Shown here: positions 1 to 42,080 of the stretch, one piece after another
Layout: each line of letters begins with the position of its first letter
How positions within the stretch are numbered: the first letter of the stretch is position 1
From: Reclinomonas americana ATCC 50394
Lineage: Eukaryota
Assembly (NCBI GenBank): GCA_048213135.1
Contig: PS015196.1
Location: forward strand, 41,224 to 83,659
Direction of reading: 5' to 3'
DNA length: 42,436 nt
Program-made: the position numbers and the translations under genes
Notes under the pieces: generated by a model
Seen by the model: only the letters and a program-made list of their open reading frames with translations
What the model was told of the DNA's origin: nothing
Databases searched by the model: none

Positions 1-2826
1 GCTGCAGTTGTGAGTGTGATGGAAAGCGGTCGATCTGATACTGCGCACCGCAGATCGAGGAGCTGCAGAACGCGTATACCGAGTCGCGACGGCATGCGGC
101 AGCGGAACAGGAGCGATTGCAGTTGCAGGTGCTGGCGCTCAATTGGAGCTCGTAACTGACTGGAGGCCTCAACGTGACTTGTTGTTGTGCAGATTTCACA
201 ACTGCAACACGCAGTGCGGGAGCACCGAGATGCGCTGCTGGCCATGCAATCAATCTATGACGAAACGCGCGTGACACATCGGAAGGAGGTGGGTCATTCG
301 TGGGCTGACTTGCCGGGCAGGCTCGTCGACTCACATTATATTGTGTGTCGTGCCACAGCTGCAGCGACTGGAGCAAGTGATGGATGGGCAGCGACACTCG
401 TTTGAGGCAAAGGTCCGACATACCGCACACACTGTGTGGGGGAAGAAGAGAAGGAGCTGGGGATGGAGGGCAGAGGGTGAACTTGTATGTGCTTGCTGTT
501 CTGCCAGACCGAGTTTGTCTGCATCCTCGTCCATCCGGCCACAAGACTGAGAGAGAGAGAGAGGGAGAGAGAAAGGGGCGGAAGCCGATGATGGAGCTCG
601 TCAGATAGTGGTTTCTTACAACGCGTCACACAGCTCGCATCGATCGAGGCTTGGCTGGAGGCACCAAGGCATCGTGAGAAATCTTCACGGCCCTCCACGG
701 GAACCAGCGCGGATGAAGGCAGTGACTTGCCGCCGCAGCTGAGCTTACCGGCCCCTTCATCGTCGGCTCCGTTGGACGAGGTTCGTTGGAGTCTTTTTGT
801 TGCACCNNNNNNNNNNNNNNNNNNNNNNNNNNNNNNNNNNNNNNNNNNNNNNNNNNNNNNNNNNNNNNNNNNNNNNNNNNNNNNNNNNNNNNNNNNNNNN
901 NNNNNNNNNNNNNNNNNNNNNNNNNNNNNNNNNNNNNNNNNNNNNNNNNNNNNNNNNNNNNNTTCCGCTGGAGTAGGGCCCTGACCACGTACAGTGGAGA
1001 TGTCAACGCTGCGGTCAACCGGTGACGGATGCGACGACAGAGGAGTGTCGCTATCACCCTGTTGCGTTCACAGGCCCTGCTCGTTCACGCGGCGCCATCT
1101 TGCACGCATGCTCACTGCCCTCGCAGGGAGTGAGTGCTTCTCGGTTATCGCTTTCACGCCATCATCGTACTGACACGTGTGCGCACTCTCCTCGATGTGA
1201 TCTCGCTTCTGTTCGGTGCAGCAAGTTGCGTCGGCGGGTAGCATAGTGCTGTCTTGTCTGTGTGATTTACTCAAGTAGTATTATTTCATGCCTGTGCGCA
1301 GCAAGTTGAGTTACTCGTCTCGTGAGCAGCAATATGTTTGTGTAACTTGTTGCTGATATCCGATGCACCCCAACATCGTGCGTGGAGCAGGCGGTGAGTG
1401 CATGCGTGCTGTTCCTCTTTAGATGTGCCTGCTCACCGTTCGGTTCCGCGCGCAGGTGGTGCGTGAACTGTTGCCACTGTGTGGTCTTGTTACTGCGTTT
1501 GTTTTTTGGTTGTTTGTTCACTGTGGCGACCCTGCTCGCTTCTGCATGGATGGCTGCAATCGTAGCGGGTGAGTGAATATGTGTCCGTGTTTGTGTCACG
1601 ATGAGAAAGACTGCGTTGCTCACGTGATGCGCAGCCGGTGAGTTCTTGTGTAGGCGCCATTGAATCTCGTTGTACCACTACTGACGGGCACTCCTTGGTA
1701 TCACGCGATTCCCAACCACAGCCGGTGAGCTGATGAGATAAGAGTGCATTAATGTTCTCTGGCTGCCATTGCTTGCTCACTGACTTTCTCTTTCACATTG
1801 TGGCAGTCGGTGAGTGATTTCGAGCTGCGAAACCCTTGATTCGTTCTCACATTGAATGTTTGGCTGGCGCTCGACTACGATGACATACAGGAGGTACGTG
1901 CCTGTCGTAGTCGTATCCTTGGTCGCAGCGTCACGTGTCAGCTCACCGTTCAATCGTGTGTCTGTCTGTTCCTTTTCTGCCGATTCGGTGCAGATGGTTC
2001 GTTCCCTAATCCTTGCTCACACTGTGTGTCTTTCGCTACTGACCGGCAACGGGCACAGGGGGTCTGTTACTGGGGGATACGATGCGGGCATGCTACTATT
2101 TGTCTGTGCTCTGTCGCATGTGTGTCGTCAAACATTCCTCTTGGGCTCTGCGATAGTGGCACAGGAGTAGTTCCTTTGTCCCCTTGCTTTGTTCGCTGTG
2201 ATGTGTGGGTTCTGCATCGTGTTTCTCTTTGTGCCTCACAGATTGACTTCTCGCATGTTCGGACGGCAGGGAGTTGCGTTGTTGTGGCTTGGTGCGCTGT
2301 TTATCTTGTCTACTCACTCACACGTACATTTATCGTATGCCTGACAGACCGTTGCGTGGTGTAGCGTATTTCCCAGCTGCTCATCCTGTTTACTCACTCA
2401 CACATGGCCACACGGCGGCGTTGGAACACCGACAGGCGGTACGTCTGCTTGTTCTGTCTCTGTTCTCCCGCACCCATTATCTCACTCGACCCGATCCACC
2501 ACTACGTGTTTGCTGTGATGTGAGCAGGAGGTATGTAATATTGCAAGTATGGTGTGCTGGGAGTTTTCGATTCTCATTTCCTTTCCCCTTCGCAGTGGGT
2601 ACGTTTTCGCCGGCAAACAACATCGTTGTTGTAGTACAACTCATGTTGTTGTTCGTGCTCTTCTACTTCCTCGCTGGCATATCACAGACGGTGAGTTCGT
2701 GCAGTGTTCATCGTGCTGCGGCGCACCGGCTTACACTCACTGTGGCACACTGCACAGTGGACGTGTTGCAATCAATCAGTGGGACCGCAGGCTGTCGGAT
2801 GTGTTGTCGGCAAACACGTGCGGTGA
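1..2826 (+). CDS. Coiled-coil protein with C-terminal CHORD-like zinc-binding domain; 5' part outside window; contains 18 one-codon microexons
   Basis: Hand-spliced phase-0 exons 54-128, 193-288, 359-412 (IEELQNAY...LQRLEQVMDGQRHSFEAK, helical/coiled-coil-like), 634-780, 995-1060 (WRCQRCGQPVTDATTEECRYHP), 18 x 3-nt exons from 1127 to 2690, and last exon 2758-2826 (WTCCNQSVGPQAVGCVVGKHVR*). The pattern CxxC..CxYHPG..WxCC..GCx4H resembles CHORD/Btk-type fingers. An N gap at 807-962 could hide further exons. Confidence 0.85.
1127..2690 (+). other. Array of 18 three-nucleotide (single-codon) microexons
   Basis: YAG|NNN|GT at 1127 GGA, 1222 CAA, 1302 CAA, 1391 GCG, 1456 GTG, 1566 CGG, 1635 CCG, 1722 CCG, 1807 TCG, 1891 GAG, 1994 ATG, 2059 GGG, 2270 GGA, 2348 ACC, 2436 GCG, 2528 GAG, 2596 TGG, 2688 ACG. 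Donors are GTGAGT/GTGAGC/GTGCGT/GTACGT/GTATGT/GTTCGT/GTCTGT/GTTGCGT/GTTGAGT. Introns are 62-107 nt (one is 208 nt), often with CTCAC/CTGAC-like branch sites. Confidence 0.9.
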
Positions 2827-2902
2827 GGCCCCAGCGGAATGCATGGAATCACGAAATGTACGACCTGCAGGGAATGTGTGCTACGATGGAAATTACTACA
2901 AA

Positions 2903-3272
2903 TCAAGTTTGATCTTGCGCTAGTCCTATTACGGCCACAGCGGCCGCCACAAAGCCGAGGCCGCCCAGCATCAGCCATCGGGCCCGACTTGGCGCCTGAC
3001 GCCACTCGCCAAACAAAATACTCCACACGTTGGCTGTTAGTATCACCGAGCTCATGTACACCGGCCACGCGACAACCTCGCCCAGTGCCGTGTACTTGGA
3101 GGCGATACCAAAGAGCAAATATCCTGTGCACGCACACAAAGAGAACGTAAGTAATCTGCGGGGCTACGACGAGTGCGAGTGAGCGAGAGAATGCAGGCGA
3201 CTTCTGTCGCTTGGAACAGGTGTCTCGCAAGGTGCATCTCTCATTCTCCCTCTATCCTACCGCACTTTCTCC

Positions 3273-3305
<33 letters not shown>

Positions 3306-5333
3306 CCACTCACCTGAAAACCACAACAGCCCCATGAACAAGCTCAACAACCACATGCGGAGCACGGTGTAGTCGCAGCAGCTGGACGTTTGCTCTTTCG
3401 GTCCCAGCAGCGGTCTCACTGGCGACCAACTGTACGCCAATTTGACGTCCCCTTTCGGTTCACGCGCACACTGGCAGCACCACAGATTCAGCTGCGCACG
3501 TCGACGAAGCAGGTGTGAGCGATTCGCATAGCAACAACTTACAACCGGGGAATTTGGGAGCCCAAACCTTGCGGTCGGGGTACTGTCGCACTTGCAGCCG
3601 GTACATGATAAGCGTGTACACCGTGTTGACAAAGTAGCCGCCGATGCCAAGAGATAGTGCCCACACAACCAGAGCCGACCGATCTTCGCTCAGATTTTCC
3701 TCAGTCTCCGCGTAGTCAATAAGCGGCTGTCCAATCTGCACAGCGCCGATAAGTGTACACACATGAAAAATGCGAGACGATAGCGGCAAAGAGCGTCGGC
3801 AGCGCACCAGCACAGAGACAACAATGGCAATCGAGCATACACCGGCTACGCAGCACCACATGATGCCTTTGATGTAGTCACGCATCGGCCGGCGGGCGAT
3901 TGGCGAGGCCACGCGGGCTGCGACAGGGACCATGACGTGCTGCGCGACACCGTCCCATATGAGACCGTGGACACGAGGCACGACACGATTGAGCACTCAC
4001 CGCCGACCCTTCATCGGTGAAATCCTCTGCCGACGAGGAACCATAGTTGACACTAATGTCGCGTTGGAGCCGCAAGCCACTTGCCGACCGCTGCGTTCCC
4101 TGCGACGACTCAGATCGCTGGGAGGCAGCAGGTGACGGGTCTACGTGATGCCACACGGCACCAGCCGCGTCCTTGTAGTGGCCCGCGAGAGCACACAATA
4201 CGACCCCGAAGAGCACAATGCCAAGAGAGAGTAACGTCAGGATGCCTGCGAATTGGGTGGAAGGGGGGATGAAGGGCACGACAGCAAGATCAGACGCAGC
4301 GGCGCACGAAACGCGATGTTTTCTGTCTCTCTCTCTCTCTCCCTCCCTCAGCGCAACCACCACCCACCTCTCAGCTTCAGCATCTCATCGCGGTGATTCA
4401 TCAGCAACGCGGCGAGCGAGCCGCCCGTTCCGAGAATGCCAAGCACCAACGAGAACGACATACTCATGCCGATCAAGGCGACAGCCCAGCCAAAGACGAC
4501 GCTGCCGAGGCCCCACACCGCTCCAAAGACCTGCACCATGTATGCAAAGAGAGAGAGAGAGAGAGAGAGAAGAGGGAAAGAGACAGAGAGAGGGAAAGAG
4601 ACAGAGAAAGAGACAGAGAGAGATAGAGAGACAGAGAGAGAACGACAGAGAGAGAGAGCGACAGAGAGAGAGAGAGCGTGACAGAGAGAGAGAGAGAGAG
4701 AGAGCGCGACAGAGAGAGAGAGAGCGCGACAGAGAGAGAGAGAGAGACAGAGAGAGAGAGAGATGAGGAAGAGAGAATGAGAGAGAGAGATAAGANNNNN
4801 NNNNNNNNNNNNNNNNNNNNNNNNNNNNNNNNNNNNNNNNNNNNNNNNNNNNNNNNNNNNNNNNNNNNNNNNNNNNNNNNNNNNNNNNNNNNNNNNNNNN
4901 NNNNNNNNNNNNNNNNNNNNNNNNNNNNNNNNNNNNNNNNNNNNNNNNNNNNNNNNNNNNNNNNNNNNNNNNNNNNNNNNNNNNNNNNNNNNNNNNNNNN
5001 NNNNNNNNNNNNNNNNNNNNNNNNNNNNNNNNNNNNNNNNNNNNNNNNNNNNNNNNNNNNNNNNNNNNNNNNNNNNNNNNNNNNNNNNNNNNNNNNNNNN
5101 NNNNNNNNNNNNNNNNNNNNNNNNNNNNNNNNNNNNNNNNNNNNNNNNNNNNNNNNNNNNNNNNNNNNNNNNNNNNNNNNNNNNNNNNNNNNNNNNNNNN
5201 NNNNNNNNNNNNNNNNNNNNNNNNNNNNNNNNNNNNNNNNNNNNNNNNNNNNNNNNNNNNNNNNNNNNNNNNNNNNNNNNNNNNNNNNNNNNNNNNNNNN
5301 NNNNNNNNNCCCTCCCTCCCTCCCTCCCTCCTC

Positions 5334-5395
<62 letters not shown>

Positions 5396-5586
5396 TCTCT
5401 CCTCCCTCCCTCCCTCCTCTCTCTCTCTCTCTCCTCCTCTCTCTCTCTCTCTTGCATTCACGCAACAGCGCCCTCATGCGTCCCTAGTCTTTGCTGGGCC
5501 ATGAACTTGAGCGGCACAGTGAAGCTGCCATTCAGAAGACCAGCCACGACGGATAGGCCAACGCAGGCGGCTGCCGAGTTCGCCAT
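2903..5586 (-). CDS. L-rhamnose-H+ symporter (RhaT)-like DMT superfamily transporter, multi-exon
   Basis: Exon peptides MANSAAACVGLSVVAGLLNGSFTVPLKF, VFGAVWGLGSVVFGWAVALIGMSMSFSLVLG, LGIVLFGVVLCALAG, YIKGIMWCCVAGVCS, AWPVYMSSVILTANVWSILFGEWRQAP match the RhaT motif order as I recall it. At least one exon probably lies in the gap 4796-5309. Confidence 0.8.
4548..5452. repeat. (GA)n/(CT)n microsatellite tracts flanking an assembly gap; similar (GA)n, (CT)n, (GT)n tracts in many introns
   Basis: Simple repeats here and at about 3275, 9147, 10110, 14174, 19380-19770, 35890, 40435, 40795 and 42310. Confidence 0.95.
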
Positions 5587-9142: not shown

Positions 9143-9185
<43 letters not shown>

Positions 9186-10110
9186 GGAGGGGGGGGGCTG
9201 CATGAGCGACGATGGTGTGAGAGTATAGTTTATCTCTTTCTCTCTCTTNNNNNNNNNNNNNNNNNNNNNNNNNNNNNNNNNNNNNNNNNNNNNNNNNNNN
9301 NNNNNNNNNNNNNNNNNNNNNNNNNNNNNNNNNNNNNNNNNNNNNNNNNNNNNNNNNNNNNNNTCCCTCCCTCCTCCTCCCCCTCCCCTCCCTCCTCTCT
9401 CTCTCTCTCTCTCTCTCACGCCCAGCATTTCTACCTGACTTCTTGCTGTGGCGAGCGTCTTCTGATCTTCTGATGACCTGCCTCTCTTGTGCCCTCATTC
9501 CATCCCTCCTTCCCTCTCCACAGCTTCGTCGGCAACCACAAACGCTGCCACTTCCATCTCGACTCAAGCGGCGACGCTCAACGCGTCCATTGACAACTCG
9601 TCGGCGTCGGCGAGTAGCAACTACTTTGAGCTTGCGGTCGACAGCGCGGACTTCTCGACGGCCTCTGTGGTTCACATCTATGCTGGCAGCTATAATACAA
9701 ACGGCTTCAAGAACGACGACCGCCTGCATGCGATGTTTGCTAATCCGTGGGTGAGTTCCACATCGCAGTGCGCTTGCCCGTTGTTGTTGTTCATAAAATT
9801 CACACATATGAGGATCGTAAAATAGGGTATGACGTCGGATGCACGCGGCAATCTGTATGTCACGGACTACGCGTTTCGTTCAACTGTGATACGGCGGTGG
9901 CCTGGTCTTCCCTGTGATTGACACTGGCGTGTCCGTGCACGCAGCAATCAATGCATCCGATTCGTCGACATTCACTCGGGAGATGTGTCGACGTACACTG
10001 GCGGTTGTGGCCAGACGCACGACTACGTGAATGGCGGTCCGTCTGTTGCGCGTTTCCACAAGTTGCGTTGATTAGCTGTTGTGTTTGTGTTTGTGTTGTT
10101 GTTGTTGTTG

Positions 10111-10164
<54 letters not shown>

Positions 10165-22458: not shown

Positions 22459-25202
22459 ATGTCGCGAGAAGACGAGACCGTAATCACTACTGAAGAGCTG
22501 GAAGCCGGCGGCTTTGACGGCGACGACTTTGAGTTGGAGGGCGCTGAAGGCGACGGATACGCCGACGGAAGCGAGTTGCCGAATGAGGGCACCTCTGGAG
22601 CCTCTGACTCTGCAGCAGCTGGTGCTGCAGCAGTGCCGCGCTTTGGCCCACTGTCGGCGAAGAAGCTGAAGGAGGTGAGAAGGCGTATTGAGAGAGAGAG
22701 AGAGATTGTGACTTTTTTGGGCTCTCCTTTGAGGCGCTTTCAGCTGTGCTGCACCTTGGCGCACACTTTGCGCATACGTTGCACGCGCTTGCACTCACTT
22801 AACGCACACTTTCACACACTTTACGCACACTTTTCACTCGTACTCTTGTTACTTTCCACTCACATCGTGCACGCCTTCTGCACACGCTCTCTGTCTCTGC
22901 ACTCTTGCATTGTCGCCCTCAGCGCGACGCAGTTTCCGGGGCGTCTTTGGTGGTGTTGGTGTTGTGCGTGTGTGTGTCTGTGCATGTGAATGTGCACTTG
23001 CACTTTTTTCACACTTTTTTCCTCGCCCGTCCCCTCTGACTCCGTCTTTGTTTGTGTGCCTGTGTAGCTGTGAGTGTGATGATTGCTGCGAATGCAGTTT
23101 CTTTCAGTCACTCTCCCTCAGTCACACCCTCAGTCACACATCCTCGTCACACTCGCAGTCACACTCTCAGTCGCACCCTCTCAGTCGCATCCTCTCAGTC
23201 GCACTCCCAATCACACTCTCAGTCACACTCTCAGTCACACTCTCAGTCACACTCTCAGTCGCACCCCCTGTCACACTCTTAGTCGCACCCTCAGTCACTC
23301 CCTCAGTCGCACCCTCAGTCGCACCATCAGTCACCCACTCAGTCACACTCTCAGTCGCACTCAGTCACACCTGCAGTCTCATTCTCAATCACACTCTCAG
23401 TCGCACCCTCAGTCACACTCCCTCAGTCACACTCTCAGTCGCACCCTTTGTCGCACCTGCAGTCGCACCCTCAGTCGCACCTGCAGTCTCATTCTCAGTC
23501 GCACCCTCAGTCGCACTCTCAGTCGCACCCTCAGTCGCACCCGCAGTCACACTCTCAGTCGCACCCTGCCACACTCTCAGTCTCCTACTCAGTCACACTC
23601 TCAGTCACACTCAGTCACACCCTCCCTCTCCCTCTCACTCACCGCTCTCTTCCCCCTCACAGGCCGTGAAGAAGGAGTACCGCAAAATCCCTGTTCCCCC
23701 ACACCGATTCACGCCGCTGAAGAAGAGTTGGGCGCGCTTGTACCAGCCACTGGCAGAGCACATGAAGCTGCAAGTGCGCATGAACCTCAAGTCGCGCAGC
23801 GTGGAGATTCGAGTTGCGTTGATGTGAGGAGTGAGGGAGAAGGATCGATTGCTCTCTTCTCCTTCTGCTGGGTCTGTCTCTTCTTTTTTTGTCGACTCTT
23901 CTCAGTGACTCTCTCTCTCTCTCAAGTATTGCCAATCTTTGTGCATAATTCTCTTCCCTTCCTCACATCGTGTCCTTCTCTTCCTCCGCTCCTTTCATCT
24001 CTATTTCACCCCAGGTCTTCTTCAGTGTGGTGCTTATCTCGTTCGTGTCGTTGTGTTTTCTTTCCCATTCCCATTCCTCCACGCCTCTTCTCTGCCCTCC
24101 CCCTCATTCCTTATCCATTCTCCTCACCATTCCCCTTCTCCACGGTTCCCCTTCTCACATTCCTCTTCTCCACGCTTCTCTTCTCCACGCGTCTTTTCCA
24201 CGCTTTGCTTTCTCCACGCTTCGCCTTCTCCACGCTTCGCCGTCTCCCCGCTTCTCTTCTCCACGCTTCTCTTCTCCACACTCTGCCTTCTCCACGCTTC
24301 GCCTTCTGCAGGCGTCTCTTCTCGACGCTTCGCCTTCTCCACGCTTCGCCTTCTCCACGCTTCGCCTTCTCCACGCTTTGCCTTCTCCACGCTTTGCCTT
24401 CTCCACGCTTCGCCTTCTCCACACTTCGCCTTCTCCACACTCTGCCTTCTCCACGCTTCGCCTTCTCCACGCTTCTCTTCTCCACGCTTCTCTTCTCCAC
24501 TCTTAGCCTTCTTCACCATTCCCCAACTCCACGCCTTGCCTTCTCCACGCTCTCCCTTCCCCACCCTTTCCCATTTCTCACCCTTCTCTGTTTACCTTCC
24601 CTTCTCCGCCCTTCCGTTCCCTCCCTTTCACCTTCCCCATCCTCAGACGTGCGCCGAAACGGAGGACCCCGGCGCCATCCAAAAAGGCGCCGACTTTATC
24701 GCCGCCTTCCTCATGGGCTTCGAAATCGAGGATGCCGTGGCACTGCTGCGTATGGACGACCTGTACGTCGACACGTTCGAGATCCACGACGTGAAGACAC
24801 TGAAGGGCGACCACTTGTCGCGTGCCATTGGCCGCATCGCCGGCAAGGACGGCAAGACCAAGTTCACGATTGAGAACTCGACAAGAACACGCATTGTGCT
24901 GGCCGACACCAAGATTCACGTGCTGGGCTCGTACTCTAATGTTGCGTGTCGGGATACAGGATGTATTGTGCGAGGTTTCTTCGACTTTCTCCTGTTGCAC
25001 TCTCGCTCTCTCTACCTCAGTGTCTCTTCCTCTCGTTATCGTCGCTCTCTATCTTGGTGACAGCATCTTCTCTTTCTCATGCCGACCGCGGTCTCGTATG
25101 TTCCTCTTGCGTATCGCCTTGCATTTCGATCCTGTATTTCGGTGGCGCACAGCGGTGGAAGGTACCGTCTATTACAGGAAGTGTGTCTTCTGTGATGAGC
25201 AA

Positions 25203-25243
<41 letters not shown>

Positions 25244-26191: not shown

Positions 26192-29100
26192 TTACAGCTC
26201 CTCGTCGAGGAAGCGCGTGTACAACTCGGTCTTCTTTTGCGGAGGTGCCACCGTCTTCTTCTTGCACCAGTCGTGCTTGAGGCCGTACCAAATCACAAAG
26301 ATCACCAGCGCGGCTCCGACAATGGAGAAGACCACAGCCTGCGTGTGGATGAGTCGCTATGCACACAGACAGCAAAAAAGATGACGACGACGACCACAGC
26401 AATAACGCAACAAGAGCAATCACATAGGCCGGTGTGCCGCTGGCAGTGGCGCTGACAGAGATCTGGCTGCTGGCCACTGTGACGAAATTGGTCGAGTCCG
26501 CAAAGCGGATGCACATTTGGTAGGAGCCAGTGGAGGAGATCGACAGCGGGAAGGTGTCCTGATCGCCAATCTGGCTGTTGGCTGTTTGAGGGGATAAAAA
26601 GAAGTTAGGAGTCTCGCGAGGTATCGTCACACGCTTCACCACCATGCGCAACTAATGACGCCGAGGGACACCGACGGGTCGTTCGACAGCGTGGTCTGCG
26701 ACTGGCACTGCACCGTCGGCTGCACGATGCGAATCACATCGGCCGAGGTGAGACCAGTGCCCGACACCGTCATTGTGATTTGCGTGTTGACGACAAAGCT
26801 GGTCGGGGTGAAGCCGGTGGTCGTCGGCACGGCCACGGCCACCACGCCGTTGCGCACCGTCTGGAAGTTCGAGAAGCCCGAGAAGCGGATGCAGATCTGC
26901 GGCGAGGGATGAGTGAGCAGCAAAGAAAGGAGCATCACAACCGGGAGAGTGTGGACAACCAAATAAGGCGTCCAACAATCAGGGGGAATGTGTTACAACG
27001 AGGCCAGGTGCGTCACAACCAANNNNNNNNNNNNNNNNNNNNNNNNNNNNNNNNNNNNNNNNNNNNNNNNNNNNNNNNNNNNNNNNNNNNNNNNNNNNNN
27101 NNNNNNNNNNNNNNNNNNNNNNNNNNNNNNNNNNNNNNNNNNNNNNNNNNNNNNNNNNNNNNNNNNNNNNNNNNNNNNNNNNNNNNNNNNNNNNNNNNNN
27201 NNNNNNNNNNNNNNNNNNNNNNNNNNNNNNNNNNNNNNNNNNNNACGCAACTGCATAGGCACCGACTTGCGCAATCGTGGCCTGGAAGCTCAGCACCGTG
27301 GCCGCATCATTAATGGTCTGAACCGAACCAACGGTGACTCCTGGCGCGTTGACTGGCGATCCCTGCGTGCAGTCGCCGCTCTCCTGGATAATGACGATCG
27401 AGTCGGACGGGCGCAGACCCTGACCAACGACGCTAAACGTGGTCACAATGACCGACGAGCGCACGGCCACTGGCGGGCCAAAGTTGTTGGTGGAGGGTGC
27501 TGTGATTAATACGCAAGTAATGGACGTGAGTGATGGAGAAATCCACAGTTCAAGAAAAGAAGCATTTTTCAAGAAGATCGCAAGAACAGGACCATCTCTC
27601 TCTCTCACACACACAAACAAACTTTTCACATTTCCTCTCTCTTTTGCTCACTTTCTATGATTCTCTAACTCCTTCACAGCAAAACACTCAGCACCACAAC
27701 AGGACCCACGATCAAGCCACGAGACACGCGCATCAACACAAAACCCCCCGAACATTCAAAAACGAAAACACACGACGATCATACGTCAAGAGATTAGCAC
27801 AGCGCACGAATCAAACGAGCAGAGAGGACACGCCAGAAAAGCACAAACAGAGACATAGCTGATAACTCAGGTGAATAACGAAATATGCCCACGCATACTC
27901 AACCACAAAAGAACTAAACATAACCACATCTTCAACTTAAACCTGAGAATACACGCACACGCACACAAGCACGCACACACACACACACACACACAACTGC
28001 ATCTTTCTCACTCTCCTCCTGTCCTTCTCCCCTTCCCCTTCCCATTCACCTCCCTCCCCTCCCCCTTCCCCTTTTCTTTCCCTTCCCTTGACCCCTTCCC
28101 TCCACCCCTCCCCCTTCCCCTTTCCTTCCCCTTTGACGAAACTGATGGACTGAATTGTCCCTGGCACCGCGCTCGGCGACGTCGGCTGATTGGTGCCCCG
28201 GAACGACACACAGAACATAAAATTGGCCAGCGCCGTGGGCGTCACCGGCACAATCAAATTCGACGTGGTCGGATCCACCGACGGCGAGCCGACCGACACC
28301 AGTGGCGAGTTGCCCGACGCATTGCTGCAGGTCGCGCGCACCACAATTGCAGGTGACGCGGACCGCGCAGAGAGCGAGCTGCCATCGGCGACTCCCTCCG
28401 CACCCGTGGTCATGTCGGGGGTGATGACAAACACCTGATTGAAGGAGCTCATGGCCGCGCCAGTAATCATCACATTGTTGATGGCATTCAGTGCCATGGG
28501 TGGGGCGGTGATGCCAATGGTTTGCGGCGCTGTGACGCGAGGAAGACAGTGAGTGAGTGCGCGCGGGCGGGCGGGTAACAAAAAGGAAGAATTGCACTGG
28601 CGACGAAACTGGTGACCACCAAAGCCGGCGAGCCCGCCAGCGTAGTGTACGTCGAGGAGCCCGAGAAGAGCATGCACGGAGTGTACGAGCCGGCCGTCGA
28701 GCCAGTAATGGTCACAAACAGCATGGTGCCCGTTGAGTTGGCGGTCACCGTGCCAATATTGAAGGACGAGTTGCTCATGACATTCTGTGCGCGCACATAA
28801 GAGGAAGGTGAGACGCAGCATAGACAATCCTGAAAAGGAAGCCGCACGAAACATTGCCACCGCACGTCGTGCCAGAGCCGACAATGGCCAAGACGGAGTT
28901 GGTGGCCGCGAGGTACTGTCCTTTCATGGTGAACACCACAGCAGCGCCCGGTCCAATAGACAGCGGCCATGCCAGCGATTGCACGGCAGCTAAAATAGAG
29001 TGAGTCAGACGAAATGTGTTATGACAACAAGCAATGCTAAAATAACGCACAGTTGACGGTGAGAGTGCCGTTGGTGACGGAGCTGTAATTGGCGGTGCCG

Positions 29101-32100
29101 TTCAGCTTGATACACAGCCTGTACTGGCCGGCAGCTTGCACGTTTACAGTGATGACCAACAGCGAACTGGAGACCGCCGTGATAGTGGAGATGGAGAATC
29201 CGCTCTGTTCAGAGATGGTGAGCACACTCCACTTTCTCTCCTCTTTTCTCTTCCAGTCCCACTCACCGCCACCGGCGGCTGCGGCACGGCGCACGAATTG
29301 GTGACAGCCGTCGCCGTAATAGTGTTGGACGAATTCAGCTGCGAGCCGGAGATGCTAATGGTCACGGAGGTGTTGGCGGCGATCTGTGTGGGCGCCATGT
29401 TCGAGGTTGTGGAGCCTGCAAATCGGATTAGGGAGATACGAGTTTAGCGGTGCGGGACAGCTGACAGTGATTCGAGGAGACAAGGAAGGAAGAGAGCAAC
29501 GAAGATTGCCGTCGTTGCTCTCTTTTCTCATCGCTGCTCTCGTTCTCTCTCTCTCTCGCTGCTCTTTCTCGCTGCTGCTCTCTCCTTCTCTCGCTGCTCT
29601 CTCCTTCTCTCGCTGCTCTCTCCTTCTGTCGCTGCTCTCTCCTTCTGTCGCTGCTCTCTCCTTCTGTCGCTGCTCTCTCCTTCTGTCGCTGCTCTCTCCT
29701 TCTGTCGCTGCTCTCTCCTTCTGTCGCTGCTCTCTCCTTCTGTCGCTGCTCTCTTCTTCTGTCGCTGCTCTCTTCTTCTGTCGCTGCTCTCTTCTTCTGT
29801 CGCTGCTCTCTTCTGTCGCTGCTCTCTTCTGTCGCTGCTCTCTTCTGTCGCTGCTCTATCCTCTCGCTGCTGCTCTCTCCTCTCTCGCTGCTCTCCTCTT
29901 CTCTCGCTGCTCTCCTCTTCTCTCGCTGCTCTCCTCTTCTCTCGCTGCTCTCCTCTTCTCTCGCTGCTCTCCTCTTCTCTCCCTACTACCCCTCTCCCTT
30001 TCCGCAATCCTCCCTTTCCCTTTCCCCCCTCCCTTACCGTTGATGGACAACACTCCCACCAGCGACGGCTGATTGTTACCAAAGTACGTGACACACACAT
30101 TGTAGTTGGCCACCGGCACCGCGTTGACGGAGATGCTGAAGACCAGCGCCTGCGGCCCAAGCGAGCTCAGCGACGAGATGGAGGTGACAGTCGGGTCGTT
30201 CTGCTGCGCCGATCCGCAGCTGATGACGCTGTTGACGACCAGCACCGAGTTGTTGGTTGCCGCAAAGTTGGCACCCTGCACGGTGACTTGCGTCAGCGTG
30301 TTCGGGCCAATGGCCGCGGGCACAAGGGCGGTGGAGGTCGGCGCTGTGAACGCAAGCACATTAGTGAGAAGTGGTTCGTTCAGACACGAGATGAATGCAC
30401 GCAGACATACCGAGAACGGAGAGGACACCCGAATTGACGGCCACGTAGTTGACGGAGCCAGAGAACCTGCGATGGCAAGTGAGATACTCAGCCGAGACAT
30501 GTTCCATGTGAATAGCACGCAACAGAATGCACAGCTGCATCGACTGAGCCTGGCTGGTGGTGAAACCAACGGACACGATATTGGCGCCCTGAATGTTGAG
30601 CGAGCCAGTCGTCATGGTGGTGCTCGGTGGCAGTTGCGGATTCTGCGAGTTGCACGACTGCGAGTTGGTCGTCAACGTCATGGCGACAGTGGCGCCCAGC
30701 TGGCTTCCAGAGACAGTGACAGTCGTCTGTGTGGCGAACGGCACTTGCGACGGAGTGACGGACGTCGTGTTGGCGGAGATCTCTGCATGGAGGCAGTGAG
30801 TCGGAAATTGAAGGTACTTGGAAAAGATATGAATGACGCAACGCTGCAGGGTGAACGTGCCACCTTGCACAGTGACGAACGAAACGCCGTTCTGCAGCCT
30901 GTTGGGCACGAACGAAAAAAGTTAGAAACCAAGTTGCCAAGCATGCTCCATTCCTCTCGCTCTGCTCCATTCCTCTCGCTCTGCTCCATTCCTCTCGCTC
31001 TGCTCCATTCCTCTCGCTCTGCTCCATTCCTCTCACTCTGCTCCATTCCTCTTGCTCTGCTCTTTCCCCTCCCGCTTATGGACGCAACTTGATGCAAATA
31101 TTGTAGGTGCCCAGCGCAGCATTGCCAGTGGCAATTGGCACCGTCATGAGGTTGCCACCGCCAGTCGGCGTGCCAATGTTGAAGCCAGCGGCGGCAGTCG
31201 GGTTGGACGCGACACACGAACTCGCCGCCGGCACCACCACAATATTGTTGGTGGTCTGCAGGTTAAAGCCGGTAATGGTCACCGACGTGGTGGCGTTAGG
31301 CGCCAAAAGCACCGGGTTGAAGCTGGTGGTGGTGGCATCTGCGCGGACACAGAGAGGGTGGTGAGACAACAGACAAGGTGATTTCACTCTCCCTCTCACA
31401 CACCAACTCTCTTCGCTTCCTCCTCCTCTTTCTTCTCCTCATCTCACTCTCTTTCTCTCTCTTTCTCTTTTCTTTCTCTCTCTCCCACTCTCTCTAGAAC
31501 ACCAATTCGCGTTGTCTCCTCCTCCTTCTGATCTCCCTCTCTCACTCTCCATCTCACTTCCCACCCTTCTCCTCTTTCACTTGCCCTTCCATCCCCTTCT
31601 CCTTCCCCCACTCACCCGTGATTCCCAATTGTCCATTGATGACGGCCACATACGCCGGCGCTCCCGAGAACTTGATGCAAGTAACGTACTGACCGGCGGG
31701 ACCCGAAATCTGCACCGTCTCGTTGCTGATGCTCGTGCTGGCGACCGCGCTCACTGTCACCGTGTTCACTTGAGCGGAAGTTCCGCAAGTGCCACCCGAC
31801 GCAATCACTTGGATCGAGTCGTTGGCGCCAAAGCCGTAGCCTTGAACTGCGCAGTTATCGAAAAGAATGAGGGGTCACTGATTGTGCGTACGTAATTCCA
31901 CATCCACCAACTGCATCGCAACTGGTGACAGTCTTGGACGGGTTGCCGCTGCCAATGGTGGCCGGCGAAATGCCGGTGGTGCCCTGCACACCGAGGTTGC
32001 CGCCATTGACCAGCACGTATTGATTGGTGCCGGTGAACTGCAGGCAGACGAGGTAGGCTCCCGGTGAGCTAATCGCCACACCGCTGATGACGAGTTGCGT

Positions 32101-35100: not shown

Positions 35101-35993
35101 TGGTGGTGACGAGTGCGGTGACCTTGGTGCCGTCGGTGCCCACCGCCGCCGTGCCGGTGACGGTGACGCCAGCAGCTGCCGCGGTGCCGCACGTGGCTCC
35201 CGTCACCACCTGAATCGAGTCCGATGCGCTGAGGCCGACACCGGTGATGGTGACCGTCGTGGCGGCTCTGTAAAGGAGAAGGAATGAGTAAAAGACAGGC
35301 ATTCATCGTGATTTGACTGTCTTCCTCACTCACCCTGGCGGAATCGACACTGGGCTCAACGAGCTCGCCGCCTGTTGAAGAAAATGCAATCAGTCGCACA
35401 TTATTTATCTGTGAGCGTACACAGCGACGCAACAGTGATGGTAAGAGTGCCATTCGGGACGGCAGTGAAGGTGCCGCTGCCAAGCCTGCGAAAGAGCATT
35501 ACAATTAAGCAGGAGAAGATACGAAGGAATGAAGGCCTCAACAAGCACGCAACTGCAAGCACACAGTGTACGGTCCAGCACTCGCGATACCCGTGGCAGT
35601 CACGGCAGCAAGAACGCTGGTGCTGGTCGACATGGCACTGACCATGACTGCGATGGCCGCCGGCTGCGTTGCCGAGCACATGGTGCCAGTGACGAGCTTC
35701 ACATTCGGGCTGTTTGATGGAAAGAGAGAGTGAGCAGCTGGCGACTGCAGATGGCGGTGCCTTCATCATCGTCACAGACATACCTGGCCGCAAGACCAAA
35801 GCCTTGAATGGTGACCGTAGTCTGAATGTCGTGCGTGATGGCTGATGGCGAGATGCCAGTCGAGCTGTGCAAAGAGAAAAAGAGGGCAGAGGGAGAGGGA
35901 GAGGGGAGAGGGGAGAGGGAGAGGGAGAGGGAGAGGGAGAGGGAGAGGGAGAGGGAGGGAGGGAGAAAGGGAGAGGGAGAGAGGCAGGCAGGC

Positions 35994-36052
<59 letters not shown>

Positions 36053-37600
36053 GAGGAGATGGAGGGGGAGAGACGGAGAGCGATAGACAAACAGTCAAGA
36101 GTCAGCGAAAATCACACGACCACCAACTCGTGCAGCAACAGGTCCACAAACCCTTGAACCACGAGCGCATTGGTGGCTGGCACCGCCGGCTGTCCATTGA
36201 TGCTGCAGGCACACTTTTCTGTCAGTGCTCTCGTCAGGATGCCACATACGTAAGCGGTGCCCCATACGCAACACAATGCACACGGTGAAGGCACCGGGAT
36301 TGGTGCCAGTGACCTGCACAAAGAAGAAGCTCAGCACACCGTTCTCCATTATCGATAAAGCCATCTCGGGAAAAACGCAACAGGAGTCGAGATCTGCTGC
36401 GCGGAAGTGACGGTCACCGCGCCAAACGTGACCGAGTTAACCGCGGCACTCGTGCACGCAGAGTTTTGCGCCACCGCCGTGAACGTGGGAGTCTTGTCGA
36501 GACCGAAGCCGGTGAAGGTAATGACGGTGGCGGAGGCGGGTACAATCGTCAGCGGAGTCGCGTTTGTCACACCCTGTGCAACCACGATGAGCGCGTCATC
36601 GAATTTCTTCTCGCAACTGGCAACAACAAGACCTGCACAGTGAGATTGCCACCCGTCACGGCAGCGTACGAATTGCCACCCGTTGGCCTGCATGCATGCG
36701 TATGAGAATGGCTATGATGAAAACATGTGGCTCGACGTTGACACGCAACTGAAGGCACACGATAAACAGGTTCGGCGTCGTGGTCGTCGCAGACACCACG
36801 AGCTGGGTCGGCGACGGTGAAGCGCGGTTCGTGATGGTGATGCTGGCGTCCTGCGCATTGCCGGTGCATGTGCCGCCGGTGGCAATCACCTTGACCAGAT
36901 CGGTGGCTGCGAGACTGATCGCGAAGAGTGTTCAGCATCATCGTGTGTTGGTATGAAACAAGATGGACAATATGCACTCACCCGTCGCCATTGATGGTAA
37001 AGGCGGTCATGCCGACCGGCACCTGAGTCGGCGTGATTGACTGTGTGCCTGTGGAGGGAAACAAAATGTGAGCTTTGTCAAGCAGACTCCACGTGACAGC
37101 AGCCTGGTCTCACCTTGCACAAACAAGTCGCCCGACACATTCACAGCGGTGCCCATGCCACCATATCTGCAGAGGATAAGAAACTAAGCATTTGTGTCGA
37201 GAACGACACAAGCACAGGATACTGCTGAGGCGCACGCAACTGGATGCACATCACATACTGTCCTCCAGTGTTACCAGTGCCATTCACAGTCACCGCGAAT
37301 GCAATGCTGGTGGTACCAGTCGCCGTCACGGCGCCGACGGTGATCTGTGAAGCATCGTACGCAGGTGATGAGAACATGATCATCATGTCTGGATCTAGTG
37401 TCACCTTTTCTTTTTCTTCTTCTTTCTCTCTCTGTCTCTCTCCAAACCTTCTCTTCTCCCTCCCACTCTTTCCTCGTTGATTCTCGCCAATCGCACTTGG
37501 ATTTTTCTCTGCTCTCACCTCTCTTCTTCTTCTTGTTGTTCTTCGTCTTCTTGTTCTTCTCCTTCTTCTTCTTCTTCCTTCTTCTTCTTCTTGTTGTTGT

Positions 37601-37632
<32 letters not shown>

Positions 37633-40455
37633 TCTCCCTCTCTCCTTCCTCGCCGCTTGTCGCCAATCGCATTATTTCTTTTTCTCTGCTCTCTTTTCTC
37701 TTCTCCACTCCCTTCCTCTCCCTCTCCCTCTCCTGTCCCTCTCCTCCATACCGTGCCCGGAGTGGTACCCGTGGCGCAGTTTGGCGTCGGTGAGGCCGGC
37801 AAAACGGCGATCTTGTCCGCGCCCGACAGCGCAAAACCATTGACCGTCACCGTGGTGGCGGTGGCCGGCGGAATGGAGGTCGGCGAGATGCCACTCGTGC
37901 CCTGCACGGTGAACTGGCCAGTTTGCAGCGGGATATACGTCCCCATGGCGGCGCTCGACGGGCTGCATGGCGCGTGAGATTTGGAGAGAGGAAACCTCAC
38001 TTCCACAGTCGGCAAACCTGATGCAGGCCTGGAAGGTGCCCGGCGGAGTGCTCACGTTCAGCGAAGCGGTAATCACGGTGGCAGAGCTGGCGGCCACAGT
38101 GCCGACAGTGATGCTGGCGACTTGCGCGTCGCTGCACGAACCGGCCGCAGTGACAATCTTGACGCCAGTGGTGGCTGCGGAGGAGAATCAGAAAAGAGGT
38201 CAAAAATATCTCAGTTGACTCTCTTACAAATACCAGTCAATCCAACTCCTGTAATGGACAGCACAACGCCGTTGGAGATCGAGAGCACTTGCGGAGTCAG
38301 CGACGAACCGCCTGCACATCATTACCGACGCATGAGATAATCTTCCCCACAAATCACCCTCCCACGCACGCACACACGTATGCAAACCTTGCACAGTGAG
38401 CACGGCGGAGCTGGCCACCGGCACAAACGTCGGCAGCAGCTGACCGCGCAGCTCGCCGGCCGCCGCCGCCGCGGTCGGAATGTCAACGTACCACTGACCG
38501 GCCAGGAGTTCGTTGAGCACCTGGTTCGAGGTCACGGTGACATTCTGCGTCGGCACGGTGCCCGAGGTGCTGGCCGGCACGTTGGTGAGAGTGGCCACCA
38601 ACGTGCCCGTGGCGCCAGGCACAGCCGGACCGTGAATCTCCACTGCCGTCGGGTTGCCCGACAGACCAGCAAAGGTGACCGACACGGAGATGGAGGTGTT
38701 GCCGGGGGCGACCACCACGGTGGCGGTGCCGGAGGCGTTGTTGACCTGGCCAGCCTGAGCGCCGGTGAGGACGCCGCCGGCCGTCACCGCGGGCGCCGCT
38801 TGCCCGCGGATCTCGCCATTGGTGTTGTTCACCGTCTCCACATCCACGTACCACATGCTGCTCTGCAGATCGGCCAACTGCGCCGCCGACACGGTGAAAG
38901 TCTGCGGTCCCAGCGTGCCACTGGTGTTGGCCGTCGGCACCGTCATCGCGAACAGCGCGGGGCCGGTGGCGCCCGCCGCCGCAGGTCCATGAATGTGCGC
39001 GCCCGTAATGTTGGAGCTGAGAGCAGTGTACTGTACCGTCACCGAGATGCTGGTGGGCGACACGACGGTGATGGTCGCGGAGCCTGCCGCGGCACCCGGG
39101 TTGGTGGGCGCCGGCACGTTGGCCGCCGATGTCAGCGCCATGTAGTAGTTCGACGTGCCGCTGTAGGCAATGCACAGAATGTACGTGTTCGGCGCGCTAG
39201 CCTGAATAAACGGCGTCACCGAGGTCGGCGGCGACGACACGTCAGCCGTGATGGAGATGCCATTCGGCTGTGCATCGGTCGCGCAGTTGCCGGCAGTCGG
39301 CAGCATCTTGAAGGAGGCGGAGGCTATAGAAGGGAATAGGGTTGAGAGGAAGAGGAGGTGAGGAAGAAAAAGGGAGAATTGTGCCGCACCGGAGAGACCA
39401 AAGCCGTTGATGGCCACTGCGGATTTGATTGTGGCCGGGATGGCGGTGGAGCCCACGGAGGTGGTGCCTGCAAGCAGAGAAGGGAATGAGCGGAGGATGA
39501 CTGCGAAAACACGGAGAAGTGAGAGAGTGCATACCCTGCACAGCAATCGGCAAGGCGAGGCCGCTGAAGAAGGCGGTGGCATTGGCGAACCTGTGAAAAT
39601 GGAAACAGTGAGCAAGGAGGAGAAAAAGGGGCGAGGGGGAAAAGGAGAAGGAGGAGAATGGGAAGGGGGAGAAGGGAAGAAAAATGGCTACAATCTTCGC
39701 GCACACGCAACTTGATGCACACAGTGTACGTGCCGGGGGTGGCGGTAGCCGTGGCGACAAACACCGACTGCGTGCCATCGACGCTGGCGGTGATGGTGTT
39801 GCCGACGGTGAAGACGGTGGCGGTGGCTGAGCAGTCGGTGCCCGACACGACCTTGATGGTGTCGGTGGACGAGAAACCGTAACCGGCCAGCGTCACCGAG
39901 GTCGGAATCGTGGCCACCACAAACGCGGGCGACGGTGCGGCAGTGACGGCTTGTCCGGACAGAGTGCCGACGGCGGCGTAGGCGGTGGTGGTCGCGGCGT
40001 CTGCGAACCTATTGTGGAGGATTGTGAGACACAATATGGGCAAGTTGAAGCGGAGAGTTACGACGCAACTTGTAGCACAGCGTGTACTGCGCGCCCGTGG
40101 TGAGAGTGATGGGGAAGCTCACGGCGGTGTTGGCGGTGACCACAGCGGGTGTACCGACAGTGACGCCGCCCACCATACCGCCGTTCACGCAATCGCCGTT
40201 GAAGGTGACCACCTTGACCGCGTCGGTGGCCAGCAGGCCGAAGCCGTTGATAGTCACTGTGAAGAGGGAAAGGGATGAGATCGGGGAAGGGGAAAGGGGG
40301 AAAGGGGGAAAGGGGGAAAGGGGGAAAGGGGGAAAGGGGGGAGAGGGGAAAGGGGGTAAGGGGGATAGGGACAGGGAAAGGCGGGAGAGACATGAGAGCT
40401 GAGCTCACGAGAACGAATGAAAACGGGTTAAGAAGAGAGAGAGAGAGAGAGAGAG

Positions 40456-40499
<44 letters not shown>

Positions 40500-40773
40500 T
40501 ATTTTCTCGTCTTCCACTATGCCACTTCAAGAATGTGGTATCTCTCATTCAGTCTCGTGCTCAGTTATTCTCTGCTGCGTTCGCATCCTTGAGTTGCTGT
40601 TGTACTCTCAGTGCGTGCGCGTGTCGGTGAATGTGCATCATCATCTCTGCAGTCCGCGCCTGCTGCAAATTGTTGCGGTAATGCGCTCTCCTCATTCTGT
40701 GTGTGCTCCGCATTTCTCTTCCCTATCACTCGCTCTGTTGCACTTGTCTCCCGTTCCGACTCACTCACTCTCA

Positions 40774-40869
<96 letters not shown>

Positions 40870-42080
40870 ATCGCTGCCACAACTTTCCTCACAAGGTGAG
40901 ACAAGCGACGTTCAACAAAGTGCATCGTTCTCCTTTCCTCATCCTCCCTTCTCGTGCTCGTGCTGATCTCAATCTTGTTCATGAAGAGAATGAAAGTAAG
41001 AGAACAGTGGAGGGGGAAAAGAAAAACGCAGAGCTCTTTGCGAGAAAGGGCAAAGAAATGAACAGTCACAATTACATCTCTGACGCTGCTCCTCCCCTGC
41101 ATCGGTATCCATTCTCCCCGCAGTAATCTCTTCGCCTTCCTCCCTCCCCTCCCCCTTCCCTCCCCTTCCCCCTCCCCTTTTCACTCACCCGGAGTGGCCA
41201 CAGTCAACGGAATCGCCACCGGCGTCAGCGTCGTCGTGCCCTGCACGTAGAACATCGTTCCGCCATTCACGTCGTAGAACGCGCCAGTGACAAACTGGAT
41301 GCACACGCGGTAGGTGCCAGCGGCAGAGCCGGCGACACTCGCCGTGAGATTCGGGGCCACGAGCGTGATATTCGCGGCGGTGATCGACATGACAGCGGCG
41401 TCGGCGCAAGTGCCAGCGGCGGTCACGAACTTGATCACATCAGTGGCCGCGAGGCTGCGTGCGACTTTGGAATGAGCGCAGAGGCACGACGAAGCGCGAC
41501 TCGAGTGAATGACGCAACGCCAGTCCCGTAATGGTGACTGTGGTGGCCGTGCCAGGCGGTGACGGAAGACCCTGAATCGGTGAGAATCCGGTGGTGCCTG
41601 TGTTCAAAGAATCAGCAGCTCTTTCTCTGCACAAAGTAAATGATACAAGACGCACCCTGCACCAACAGCGGCGTCGTGGACACTGGCACTGCGGTTGCTG
41701 CCGTGCCCACCCTGCAGACCAAATTGCTAAGCGCCCATTCGAACAATGGAGAGAGAGGCGAGAGAAACGAAACTTGATGCACAGGGTGAGCGAGAGAACA
41801 GCAGTCGACTTGACAGTGAAGCTGTCGACTGTGCCGCCGACGCTGGTGATCGCGCCGATGGTGACGTGCGCGTCGTTGGGTTGCGTGGCGCATGTGCCCG
41901 TGGAGATGGCAGTGATCTGCAAAGGCATTGTCAGCAATGAGGGGAAAAGGCACAGGGGAAACAGAGGGTGAAGCACACATGCCTGATCAGTCATGGACAA
42001 TCCAACGCCGGTGACAGACACCACTGTCGTCATGTCGTTCAGTGACACGAATGCCGGGGAGAAGACGCCGGTAGGACCGC
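26192..42080 (-). CDS. Giant type-I membrane/cell-surface protein with at least about 23 IPT/TIG-like beta repeats and two CHRD domains; 5' end beyond window
   Basis: Repeat of about 95 aa: GTTGxSPxxI..TxTIxGFGL...DxIxVV..GxxC...GxYxxCIxF...YxxV...LxVQ. Last exons give AYVIAL|AVVFSIVGAALVIFVIWYGL (TM helix) then KHDWCKKKTVAPPQKKTELYTRFLDEEL*, with TAA at 26192-26194. CHRD motifs (AHIHGPA...GEIRGQ) at about 38440-39135. Confidence 0.88.
29530..29980. repeat. Intronic minisatellite, about 16-19-nt unit TCGCTGCTCTCTCCTTCTG
   Basis: Tandem array read directly inside an intron of the giant gene. Confidence 0.9.
30945..31062. repeat. Intronic minisatellite, 19-nt unit CTCCATTCCTCTCGCTCTG (about 6 copies)
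   Basis: Period-19 tandem array read directly. Confidence 0.9.

Follow-up and report, generated by a model that had tools for sequence, protein, structure and literature searches.

The use of GTTGCGT-type intron starts only after exons that end in a base other than G suggests an unusual recognition of intron starts in Reclinomonas americana ATCC 50394. The window analysed here (42,436 bases of contig PS015196.1) is intron-rich, with about 50-57% G+C and ten N-masked gaps that take up 3,268 bases in total. Curated models comprise six intron-containing genes with 82 introns, and in 30 of these introns the donor (5' splice site) has the form GTT(G/T)CG(T), with the conserved GT displaced from +5/+6, its place in the normal register, to +6/+7 (the shifted class). 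Judged from the sequence, this class is real and has exact junctions; selection maintains it, and its use is linked to the last exon base (-1). We read its members as genuine major (U2-type) GT-AG introns with a second, selected consensus, H/GUU(G>U)CGU (H = A, C or U; here and below the slash marks the exon-intron junction), in which the ordinary machinery would read CGU one base further in, the U at +3 would be looped out and the motif would replace the exon-final G. We put the probability of this reading at roughly 45%.

A sequence-only reading of the window had described the class as abundant, and the counts bear this out. GTTGCGT is present in 31 copies on both strands, against 6.35 +/- 2.75 expected (100 dinucleotide-preserving shuffles; maximum 14), and its density is 0.79 per kb of non-N sequence, compared with 0.10 per kb at the PNO1 loci of 80 other eukaryotes known from metagenomes (36 copies in 357,155 bases). 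Of these copies, 29 lie at sense-strand positions suited to an intron start: 23 are donors in the six models, four belong to a chain of predicted intron-like units at 1061-2757 and two stand beside N gaps (5466 and 27251). The remaining two are antisense non-donors that oppose a large repeat gene (32094 and 41880, plus strand). The sequence-only reading gave three donor forms, which fared differently: GTTGCGT is enriched, GTTTCGT mildly so (9 copies vs 4.63 expected; 7 of 100 shuffles reach 9), and GTTGAGT is not (6 copies vs 7.78 expected, with a donor-like copy only at 1305). The heptamers it placed on the plus strand are all present exactly (12 coordinates), and those on the minus strand lie within one base of where it put them (5466, 16172, 26411, 28142, 28609, 28852, 30523, 30842, 31088, 35553, 36749, 37240, 39711, 40069 and 41773).

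The shifted class consists of 28 donors of the form GTT[G/T]CGT together with GTTGCGA at 31922 and GTTGCGC at 26652. The conserved G is found at +6 in 30 of 30 and the T at +7 in 28 of 30, in agreement with the displacement first proposed. The description as the normal motif with one extra T does not hold: the class follows a consensus of its own, GUU(G>U)CGU. All 28 donors that match GTT..GT have C at +5; at +4, 23 of them have G and five have T. In the normal class, the +4 that corresponds to this C is A in 15, T in 10 and C in eight (n = 33). Across the window, GTTACGT (0 copies), GTTATGT (1) and GTTGAGT (6) are at or below background, compared with 27 copies of GTACGT, 19 of GTATGT and 51 of GTGAGT. 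Beyond +7 the shifted introns show no conservation.

The gene models come from our own dynamic-programming gene finder, in which the heptamer was rewarded by a score bonus, followed by hand curation. Repeat consensus and homologue alignments led to four corrections (36617 to 36632, 36127 to 36151, 25708 removed, 10041 to 10062). The six genes are:

9473-13794, plus strand: NHL/beta-propeller-like gene, weak Pfam match
20020-21288, plus strand: VOC/glyoxalase-like gene, homologues P0121 and P0122
22024-26003, plus strand: PNO1, KH_PNO1_2nd at E 2.5e-28 (Pfam)
42033 to 26192, minus strand: very large gene of repeats of about 100 amino acids with a CHRD domain (E 1.5e-37)
18305-15723, minus strand: desaturase-like gene, FA_desaturase at E 0.048, below the Pfam cut-off
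4539-2903, minus strand: membrane-protein gene

The best PNO1 hit is 82% identical and the best of the 80 metagenome loci 74%. Matches in the protein atlas were confined to bacterial CHRD clusters, all below 0.9. A homologue search with two exon queries from the desaturase-like gene returned no match, so the open frame is what carries its three shifted donors.

The sequence-only reading held that conserved protein sequence fixes the junctions in PNO1 and the VOC gene, and gapless homologue alignment indeed makes them exact to the base, two in PNO1 and four in the VOC gene. The PNO1 splices 23812 to 24647 and 24940 to 25893 are gapless at the junction against 15 homologues. A full HMMER scan with a 33-residue exon of the VOC gene retrieved the relatives P0121 (E 5.3e-05) and P0122 (E 2.5e-04), and the spliced VOC model aligns with them without gaps across 20378, 20985, 21085 and 21182. 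In five of the six homologue-fixed introns the first base past the acceptor is not G, and these junctions are thus unable to slide by one. The repeat gene offers a second line of evidence. The motif C-[ILV]-x-[FYL]-x-G occurs in about 25 repeats, eleven of which have a phase-2 intron in its third codon (position P1); since the remaining repeats are intron-less at P1 and have the identical C-x-x-F-x-G spacing, nine further shifted junctions are fixed. The other 15 are placed by the open reading frame, some with an added fit to the repeat consensus. The 30 donors, followed by two candidates beside N gaps, are listed below with strand, last exon bases and the evidence for each junction:

23813..23819, plus: PNO1, cga/GTTGCGT, phase 0, intron to 24646; VEIR/TC, 15 homologues
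24941..24947, plus: PNO1, aat/GTTGCGT, phase 0, intron to 25892; GSYSN/IK, 15 homologues
20378..20384, plus: VOC gene, gat/GTTGCGT, phase 0, intron to 20442; WIDFDFD/GHQISAH vs P0121, gapless
20985..20991, plus: VOC gene, aga/GTTGCGT, phase 1, intron to 21049; FVIEPK-I-RFVGEPGE vs P0122, gapless
21085..21091, plus: VOC gene, aca/GTTGCGT, phase 0, intron to 21145; GEQGT/FFIRDPSGN vs P0122, gapless
21182..21188, plus: VOC gene, gaa/GTTGCGT, phase 0, intron to 21240; NVLE/FKSF vs P0122, gapless
41767..41773, minus: repeat gene P1, caa/GTTTCGT, C-I-x, phase 2; spacing as in intron-less repeats
40063..40069, minus: repeat gene P1, caa/GTTGCGT; intron-less repeats
39705..39711, minus: repeat gene P1, caa/GTTGCGT; intron-less repeats
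37234..37240, minus: repeat gene P1, cca/GTTGCGT; intron-less repeats
36743..36749, minus: repeat gene P1, tca/GTTGCGT; intron-less repeats
36266..36272, minus: repeat gene P1, tgt/GTTGCGT; intron-less repeats
35547..35553, minus: repeat gene P1, gca/GTTGCGT; intron-less repeats, acceptor 35486 or 35477
31082..31088, minus: repeat gene P1, caa/GTTGCGT; intron-less repeats
30517..30523, minus: repeat gene P1, tct/GTTGCGT; intron-less repeats
30836..30842, minus: repeat gene P2, agc/GTTGCGT, VQ plus one nucleotide, phase 1; six G-ending paralogues non-shifted
28603..28609, minus: repeat gene P2, cca/GTTTCGT; paralogous position
41512..41518, minus: repeat gene P3, ggc/GTTGCGT, G-F/D-G, phase 2; G-ending paralogues 36981 GTGAGTG and 33032 GTGAGCA
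31916..31922, minus: repeat gene, cca/GTTGCGA (no T at +7); spliced TVTIQGYGF fits the repeat consensus
36375..36381, minus: repeat gene, cct/GTTGCGT, phase 0; open frame only
35427..35433, minus: repeat gene, act/GTTGCGT, phase 0; open frame only
28846..28852, minus: repeat gene, aat/GTTTCGT, phase 0; open frame, also picked without the score bonus
28136..28142, minus: repeat gene, tca/GTTTCGT, phase 1, 643-nucleotide intron; open frame, also picked without the bonus
26646..26652, minus: repeat gene tail, tta/GTTGCGC (no T at +7); open frame only, with the lowest certainty in this list of 30
26405..26411, minus: repeat gene tail, ctt/GTTGCGT, phase 0; open frame only
16900..16906, minus: desaturase-like gene, gct/GTTGCGT; open frame only
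16410..16416, minus: desaturase-like gene, tca/GTTGCGT; open frame only
16166..16172, minus: desaturase-like gene, gca/GTTGCGT; open frame, also picked without the bonus
9873..9879, plus: NHL/beta-propeller-like gene, cgc/GTTTCGT, phase 2; open frame only
10062..10068, plus: NHL-like gene, probable donor caa/GTTGCGT; open frame, in-frame rival 10041 GTCTGT
5460..5466, minus: candidate donor gct/GTTGCGT, running into the N gap 4796-5309
27245..27251, minus: candidate donor gca/GTTGCGT inside the repeat gene, abutting the N gap 27023-27244

For the NHL-like gene, 10062 was favoured over 10041 by eye as it preserves the A-x-F motif of the repeat; the frame is intact with either.

The link to the last exon base is all-or-none in one direction. 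An exon-final G precedes none of the 30 shifted donors and 34 of the 52 others (Fisher 4.9e-10). The difference persists when paralogous positions are collapsed to one member each (0/20 vs 26/42, p = 9e-07) and in the genes apart from the repeat gene (0/11 vs 17/29, p = 7.8e-4). By class, the -1 bases are A 18, T 9, C 3 and G 0 for shifted donors (n = 30), A 1, T 9, C 2 and G 22 for the normal register (n = 34) and A 1, T 4, C 1 and G 12 for other donors (n = 18). Expressed the other way, shifted donors follow 18 of 20 exons ending in A, 9 of 22 in T, 3 of 6 in C and none of the 34 in G, all of which have a non-shifted donor (22 normal register, 12 other). As 18 non-G exon ends also have non-shifted donors (12 normal, 6 other), the rule is one-way: a shifted donor implies a non-G end. 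GGTTGCGT occurs once in the window, as an antisense copy at 41879. The chain at 1061-2757 follows the same pattern, its five shifted-type starts (GTTGCGT at 1061, 1225, 2273 and 2351; GTTGAGT at 1305) coming after T, A, A, A or C, and the other 14 after G in 13 cases and A in one. The non-G rule put forward in the sequence-only reading therefore survives, with no -1 G in 30 modelled donors or in the five of the chain. Within the normal register, C at +4 also tracks non-G ends (6/8 vs 6/25 for other +4 bases, p = 0.015). Because the CGU core is tied to non-G ends in the ordinary register too, the compensating feature is seemingly this core, usually with the extra U.

Paralogous intron positions of the repeat gene allow the donor to be compared within one protein context. 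At P1, seven A-ending and two T-ending copies have GTTGCGT or GTTTCGT. Two copies on the minus strand, at 38017 and 33213, are exceptions: a G-ending copy has cag/GTTTGCC, which fits neither register, and a T-ending copy has the normal GTGCGT. At P2 (one base past VQ, phase 1), the six G-ending copies have GTGCGT, GTATGC, GTGAGA, GTGAGT, GTATGT and GTAAGG, and the non-G copies have GTTGCGT (C-ending), GTTTCGT (A-ending) and GTGCGT (T-ending). At P3, a C-ending copy has GTTGCGT and two G-ending copies have GTGAGT and GTGAGC. The mean identity of P1 intron bodies is 0.475 (45 pairs), compared with 0.493 for unrelated introns (1,081 pairs). As the donor type tracks the -1 base at three paralogous positions while the bodies are randomised, selection keeps or restores the heptamer in line with the last exon base. 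Protein coding does not force the non-G end, since 9 of 12 phase-0 shifted donors could synonymously end in G (the 12 being the shifted set at that stage, and one of the nine, 36617, later being removed as a modelling artefact).

All 30 modelled shifted introns begin with GT and end with AG. They are short, with a median of 66.5 nucleotides and 25 of 30 at or below 80 nucleotides, compared with a median of 89 for normal introns. The acceptor base -3 is C in 27, T in two and A in one (30 tails, read when 36617 was still included and 10062 was not yet). A YTNAY motif lies in the last 50 nucleotides of 26 of 30, with the putative branch A 10-28 nucleotides from the 3' end and in one case at 43. 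Normal introns have a matching branch-like pattern; in both classes the motif is mostly CTCAC, CTCAT or CTGAC and precedes a CAG acceptor.

The conserved CGU that stands at +4 to +6 in GUGCGU and GUACGU donors is displaced by one base in the shifted class and occupies +5 to +7. In the reading we prefer, the U inserted at +3 would be looped out or, equivalently, the helix would be moved by one, and CGU would be read by the same small nuclear RNA (snRNA) nucleotides as in ordinary donors, by U1 first and by the U6 ACAGAGA box later. Cleavage would then fall 6 instead of 5 nucleotides upstream of the conserved G. In an exon without -1 G, a strong and nearly invariant intron-side motif would substitute for the exon-side contact, and covariation with a non-G exon end is what compensation for the lost -1 G predicts. 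Elements of such a mechanism have precedents in human cells, where bulge +2/+3 and shifted U1 registers (PMC4856993, excerpt) and a -1 U6 register (PMC11162779, excerpt) have been proven; loss of -1 G is reportedly offset by U6 pairs at +5 to +8 (PMC8283771, excerpt).

Several points weigh against this reading. Duplexes with the standard U1 5' end, taken from PMC4856993, were computed with ViennaRNA duplexfold/RNAduplex. On average, the best duplex has -1.37 kcal/mol for real shifted donors (n = 27), -1.0 kcal/mol for those matching GTTGCG only (n = 3) and -7.13 kcal/mol for normal donors (n = 34), energies that ignore pseudouridines and small nuclear ribonucleoprotein (snRNP) proteins and assume a U1 end that may not match that of the organism. 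RNAduplex finds the shifted register in only 5 of 30 real contexts, and with the standard U1 end noncanonical-register pairing is not substantially more stable than canonical pairing. Re-registering of U1 should favour GUUGAGU or GUUAAGU, and neither is preferred; A/GUUGAGU, which the organism leaves unused, would reach -7.1 kcal/mol. The C at +5 mismatches the standard partners in both U1 and U6, and we know of no description of a spacing between cleavage site and U6 pair that is one base longer. Since shifted donors are predicted to pair feebly with standard U1 in every register, a re-registered ordinary U1 fails to explain the consensus, above all the invariant C. The proposal of the sequence-only reading, that a major alternative register or a variant U1/U6 snRNA compensates for weak exon-side pairing, is thus upheld in part: covariation with the non-G end is tight, even among paralogues, but re-registering of standard U1 does not account for it (-1.4 vs -7.1 kcal/mol).

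The remaining reservations concern the sample and the models. The sample is a single 42-kb window in which 20 of 30 shifted donors fall within one gene, the repeat gene, and splicing at these donors is read solely from protein conservation and open frames. Half of the class (15/30) depends on our own gene models, whose finder favoured the heptamer. A control parse with the bonus removed reached a total score of 799.8 instead of 843.3 on the plus strand and 1385.9 instead of 1543.8 on the minus strand, and the coding frame by itself retained only 8 of 27 shifted donors. Hand checking also found two wrong model places, a false shifted donor at 36617 and an other-class donor at 36127, moved to 36151.

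The alternative that survives best, though we still regard it as unlikely, is a dedicated snRNA isoform (a second U1, perhaps also U6) complementary to GUUGCGU, so that only the ordinary isoform would require -1 G. Humans are known to express variant U1 genes (PMC3561869 and PMC10870369, excerpts). The heptamer hardly varies, all 28 donors that match GTT..GT having C at +5, as expected for continuous base-pairing; the motif pairs poorly with the standard U1 end while the better-pairing GUUGAGU goes unused, and the CGU core accompanies non-G exon ends in both registers. Against it, branch site and acceptor are common to both classes. A search of the window with Rfam gave no match at the gathering score and, at E<=1, five weak hits resembling microRNAs or small nucleolar RNAs and no snRNA, which places no such gene in the window. 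To our knowledge, no organism has two U1 specificities on such a scale. A broader proposal, which we hold to be quite doubtful, is that two discrete 5' splice-site codes, G/GURAGU and H/GUUGCGU, operate on the major spliceosome, with the last exon base choosing between them; the second would be read by its own U1/U6 isoform or through a U6 register in which cleavage falls 6 and not 5 nucleotides upstream of the conserved G.

It is improbable, in our view, that the heptamer is read outside U1/U6 pairing, either by a sequence-specific protein (LUC7-like) that belongs to the U1 snRNP or to an early complex, or through pairing with the ACGCAG end of the intron itself. For the former there is a parallel in LUC7 paralogues, which divide 5' splice sites by exon-side against intron-side strength into right- and left-handed classes (10.1101/2022.12.07.519539, excerpt); these show a comparable trade-off between the two sides of the consensus, but as a graded balance in one register, whereas here two discrete motifs lie one base apart. 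As for end pairing, the last 10 nucleotides of shifted introns pair slightly better with the heptamer (-3.78 vs -2.72 kcal/mol, p = 0.013), and ACGCAG terminates 4 of 30 shifted introns and none of the 52 others. This test was post hoc and the trend is weak. The tails also pair slightly better with the control hexamers GTGAGT and GTGCGT, though not GTACGT, so base composition accounts for part of the effect. Moreover, only 20 of 35 shifted introns have G at acceptor base -4, though +5 C is invariant.

Three further explanations are each highly implausible. Inheritance of the heptamer in copies of one duplicated intron, or as the ends of a mobile introner family, could draw on the 20 of 30 donors in one gene of repeats of about 100 amino acids, nine of them at one paralogous position; however, the paralogous bodies are as unlike as those of unrelated introns, G-ending paralogues at the same positions bear other donors, and 11 shifted donors lie in four unrelated genes, with sequence conservation ending at +7. 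We rejected this origin because the bodies lack similarity and Tandem Repeats Finder (TRF) sees only a 4-nucleotide repeat. Misplacement of junctions by gene modelling, with ordinary true donors, would fit a model that rewarded the heptamer and twice erred, but six junctions are exact in phase and residues by gapless homologue alignment, five of them unable to slide, and nine more are fixed by intron-less paralogues. A divergent minor-spliceosome (U12-type) population, for which the long, rigid, intron-only 5' signal independent of exon bases would speak, is rejected because the 3' architecture is identical in shifted and normal introns (YTNAY motif, spacing and CAG acceptor alike), the 5' consensus is GTT(G/T)CGT and not the RTATCCTT of U12-type introns, and a share of 37% would far exceed any U12 share known to us.

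Three features make the class stand out among noncanonical 5' splice-site registers: how abundant it is, an invariant consensus of its own and the all-or-none link to the last exon base. In humans the shifted-register class is very small. The human bulge +2/+3 sites of Roca and co-workers (PMC4856993, excerpt) are alike in having GU at +1/+2, the extra nucleotide next, G/U displaced by one and cleavage at the first GU; the excerpt puts all validated noncanonical registers together at about 1.5% of human sites. In contrast to those sites, which have the ordinary consensus plus a bulge, the class described here takes in 30 of 82 introns, is marked by a distinct, near-invariant heptamer in which +5 is C, excludes -1 G and pairs poorly with standard U1. 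In the human shifted (+1) U1 register (Roca and Krainer 2009; PMC4856993 and PMC11162779, excerpts) the pairs slide by one and G+1 replaces -1 G. For CA/GUUGCGU, RNAduplex picks exactly this register, but the gain is negligible (-2.7 kcal/mol for A/GUUGCGU in CA context vs -2.4 for A/GUGCGU) and is gone after U (-0.6 kcal/mol for U/GUUGCGU). The tandem donor of STAT3 exon 21 (PMC11162779, excerpt) is alike in that the cleavage site and the G:C pair formed with the ACAGAGA box of U6 are not separated by the canonical 5 nucleotides; there the distance is one base shorter (4 nucleotides) at a single human site, whereas here it would be one base longer (6 nucleotides) in a third of introns. A full-text literature search for the heptamer gave only primer-type uses among the matches listed, and the organism's own genome paper may describe the class.

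If a third of its introns do use such a displaced, near-invariant motif with poor pairing to standard U1, the organism would be a natural system in which to study how cleavage is positioned relative to the U1 and U6 helices, what makes the exon-final G important and whether snRNA variants can bear a second splice-site code. Splice-site models based on six intron bases and a single register would score shifted donors as weak and could mis-annotate such genomes.

The chain at 1061-2757 (plus strand) is a predicted series of 19 back-to-back intron-like units of 62-208 nucleotides, with exactly 3 nucleotides between neighbours. Every unit opens with a good donor, contains a branch-like motif and closes with a YAG, which is CAG in 18 units and TAG in the other. 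The triplets between units are GGA, CAA, CAA, GCG, GTG, CGG, CCG, CCG, TCG, GAG, ATG, GGG, GGA, ACC, GCG, GAG, TGG and ACG. The arrangement YAG-NNN-donor is found 17 times in the chain and 11 times in the rest of the window, both strands included; other YAG-to-donor gaps of 0-12 nucleotides give 4 to 11 matches each. Save for one neighbouring pair, unit bodies are at shuffle-level similarity, and TRF detects no array. Adjacent triplets are slightly more alike than permuted ones (summed differences 27 vs 32.8, P = 0.03). A literature search for runs of 3-nucleotide exons or tandem introns gave no such chain among the matches listed.

Some minor observations concern the introns in general. The branch-like motif seen most often, (A)CTCAC, is the reverse complement of GTGAG(T), the most frequent donor, and many short introns thus have donor-like words on the antisense strand. 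Positions +2 to +7 of GUUGCGU are complementary to the modal acceptor, (A)CGCAG. Long introns (such as 10083-10180, 27500-28142, 40257-41188 and 5310-5466) are full of (GT)n, (GA)n and GGAA-type microsatellites, and several N gaps lie inside them.

Outside the introns, an intron-less open frame of 408 amino acids past an N gap (6860-8083, plus strand) has the repeats DKAKDVAG-VADK-AETAYDKAKDVAG; it gave no Pfam match and resembles LEA or apolipoprotein-type proteins. At 14588-15611, a repeat of about 441 bp is present in two to three tandem copies with 86-94% identity and adjoins a long (CT)n tract (14175-14290). A tandem duplication of about 433 bp where the PNO1 gene begins (5' end; 21837-22166 and 22270-22595, plus strand; 83-94% identity) repeats a coding stretch whose product includes EGDGYAD, and the modelled PNO1 N-terminus therefore has the same 50-residue segment twice.

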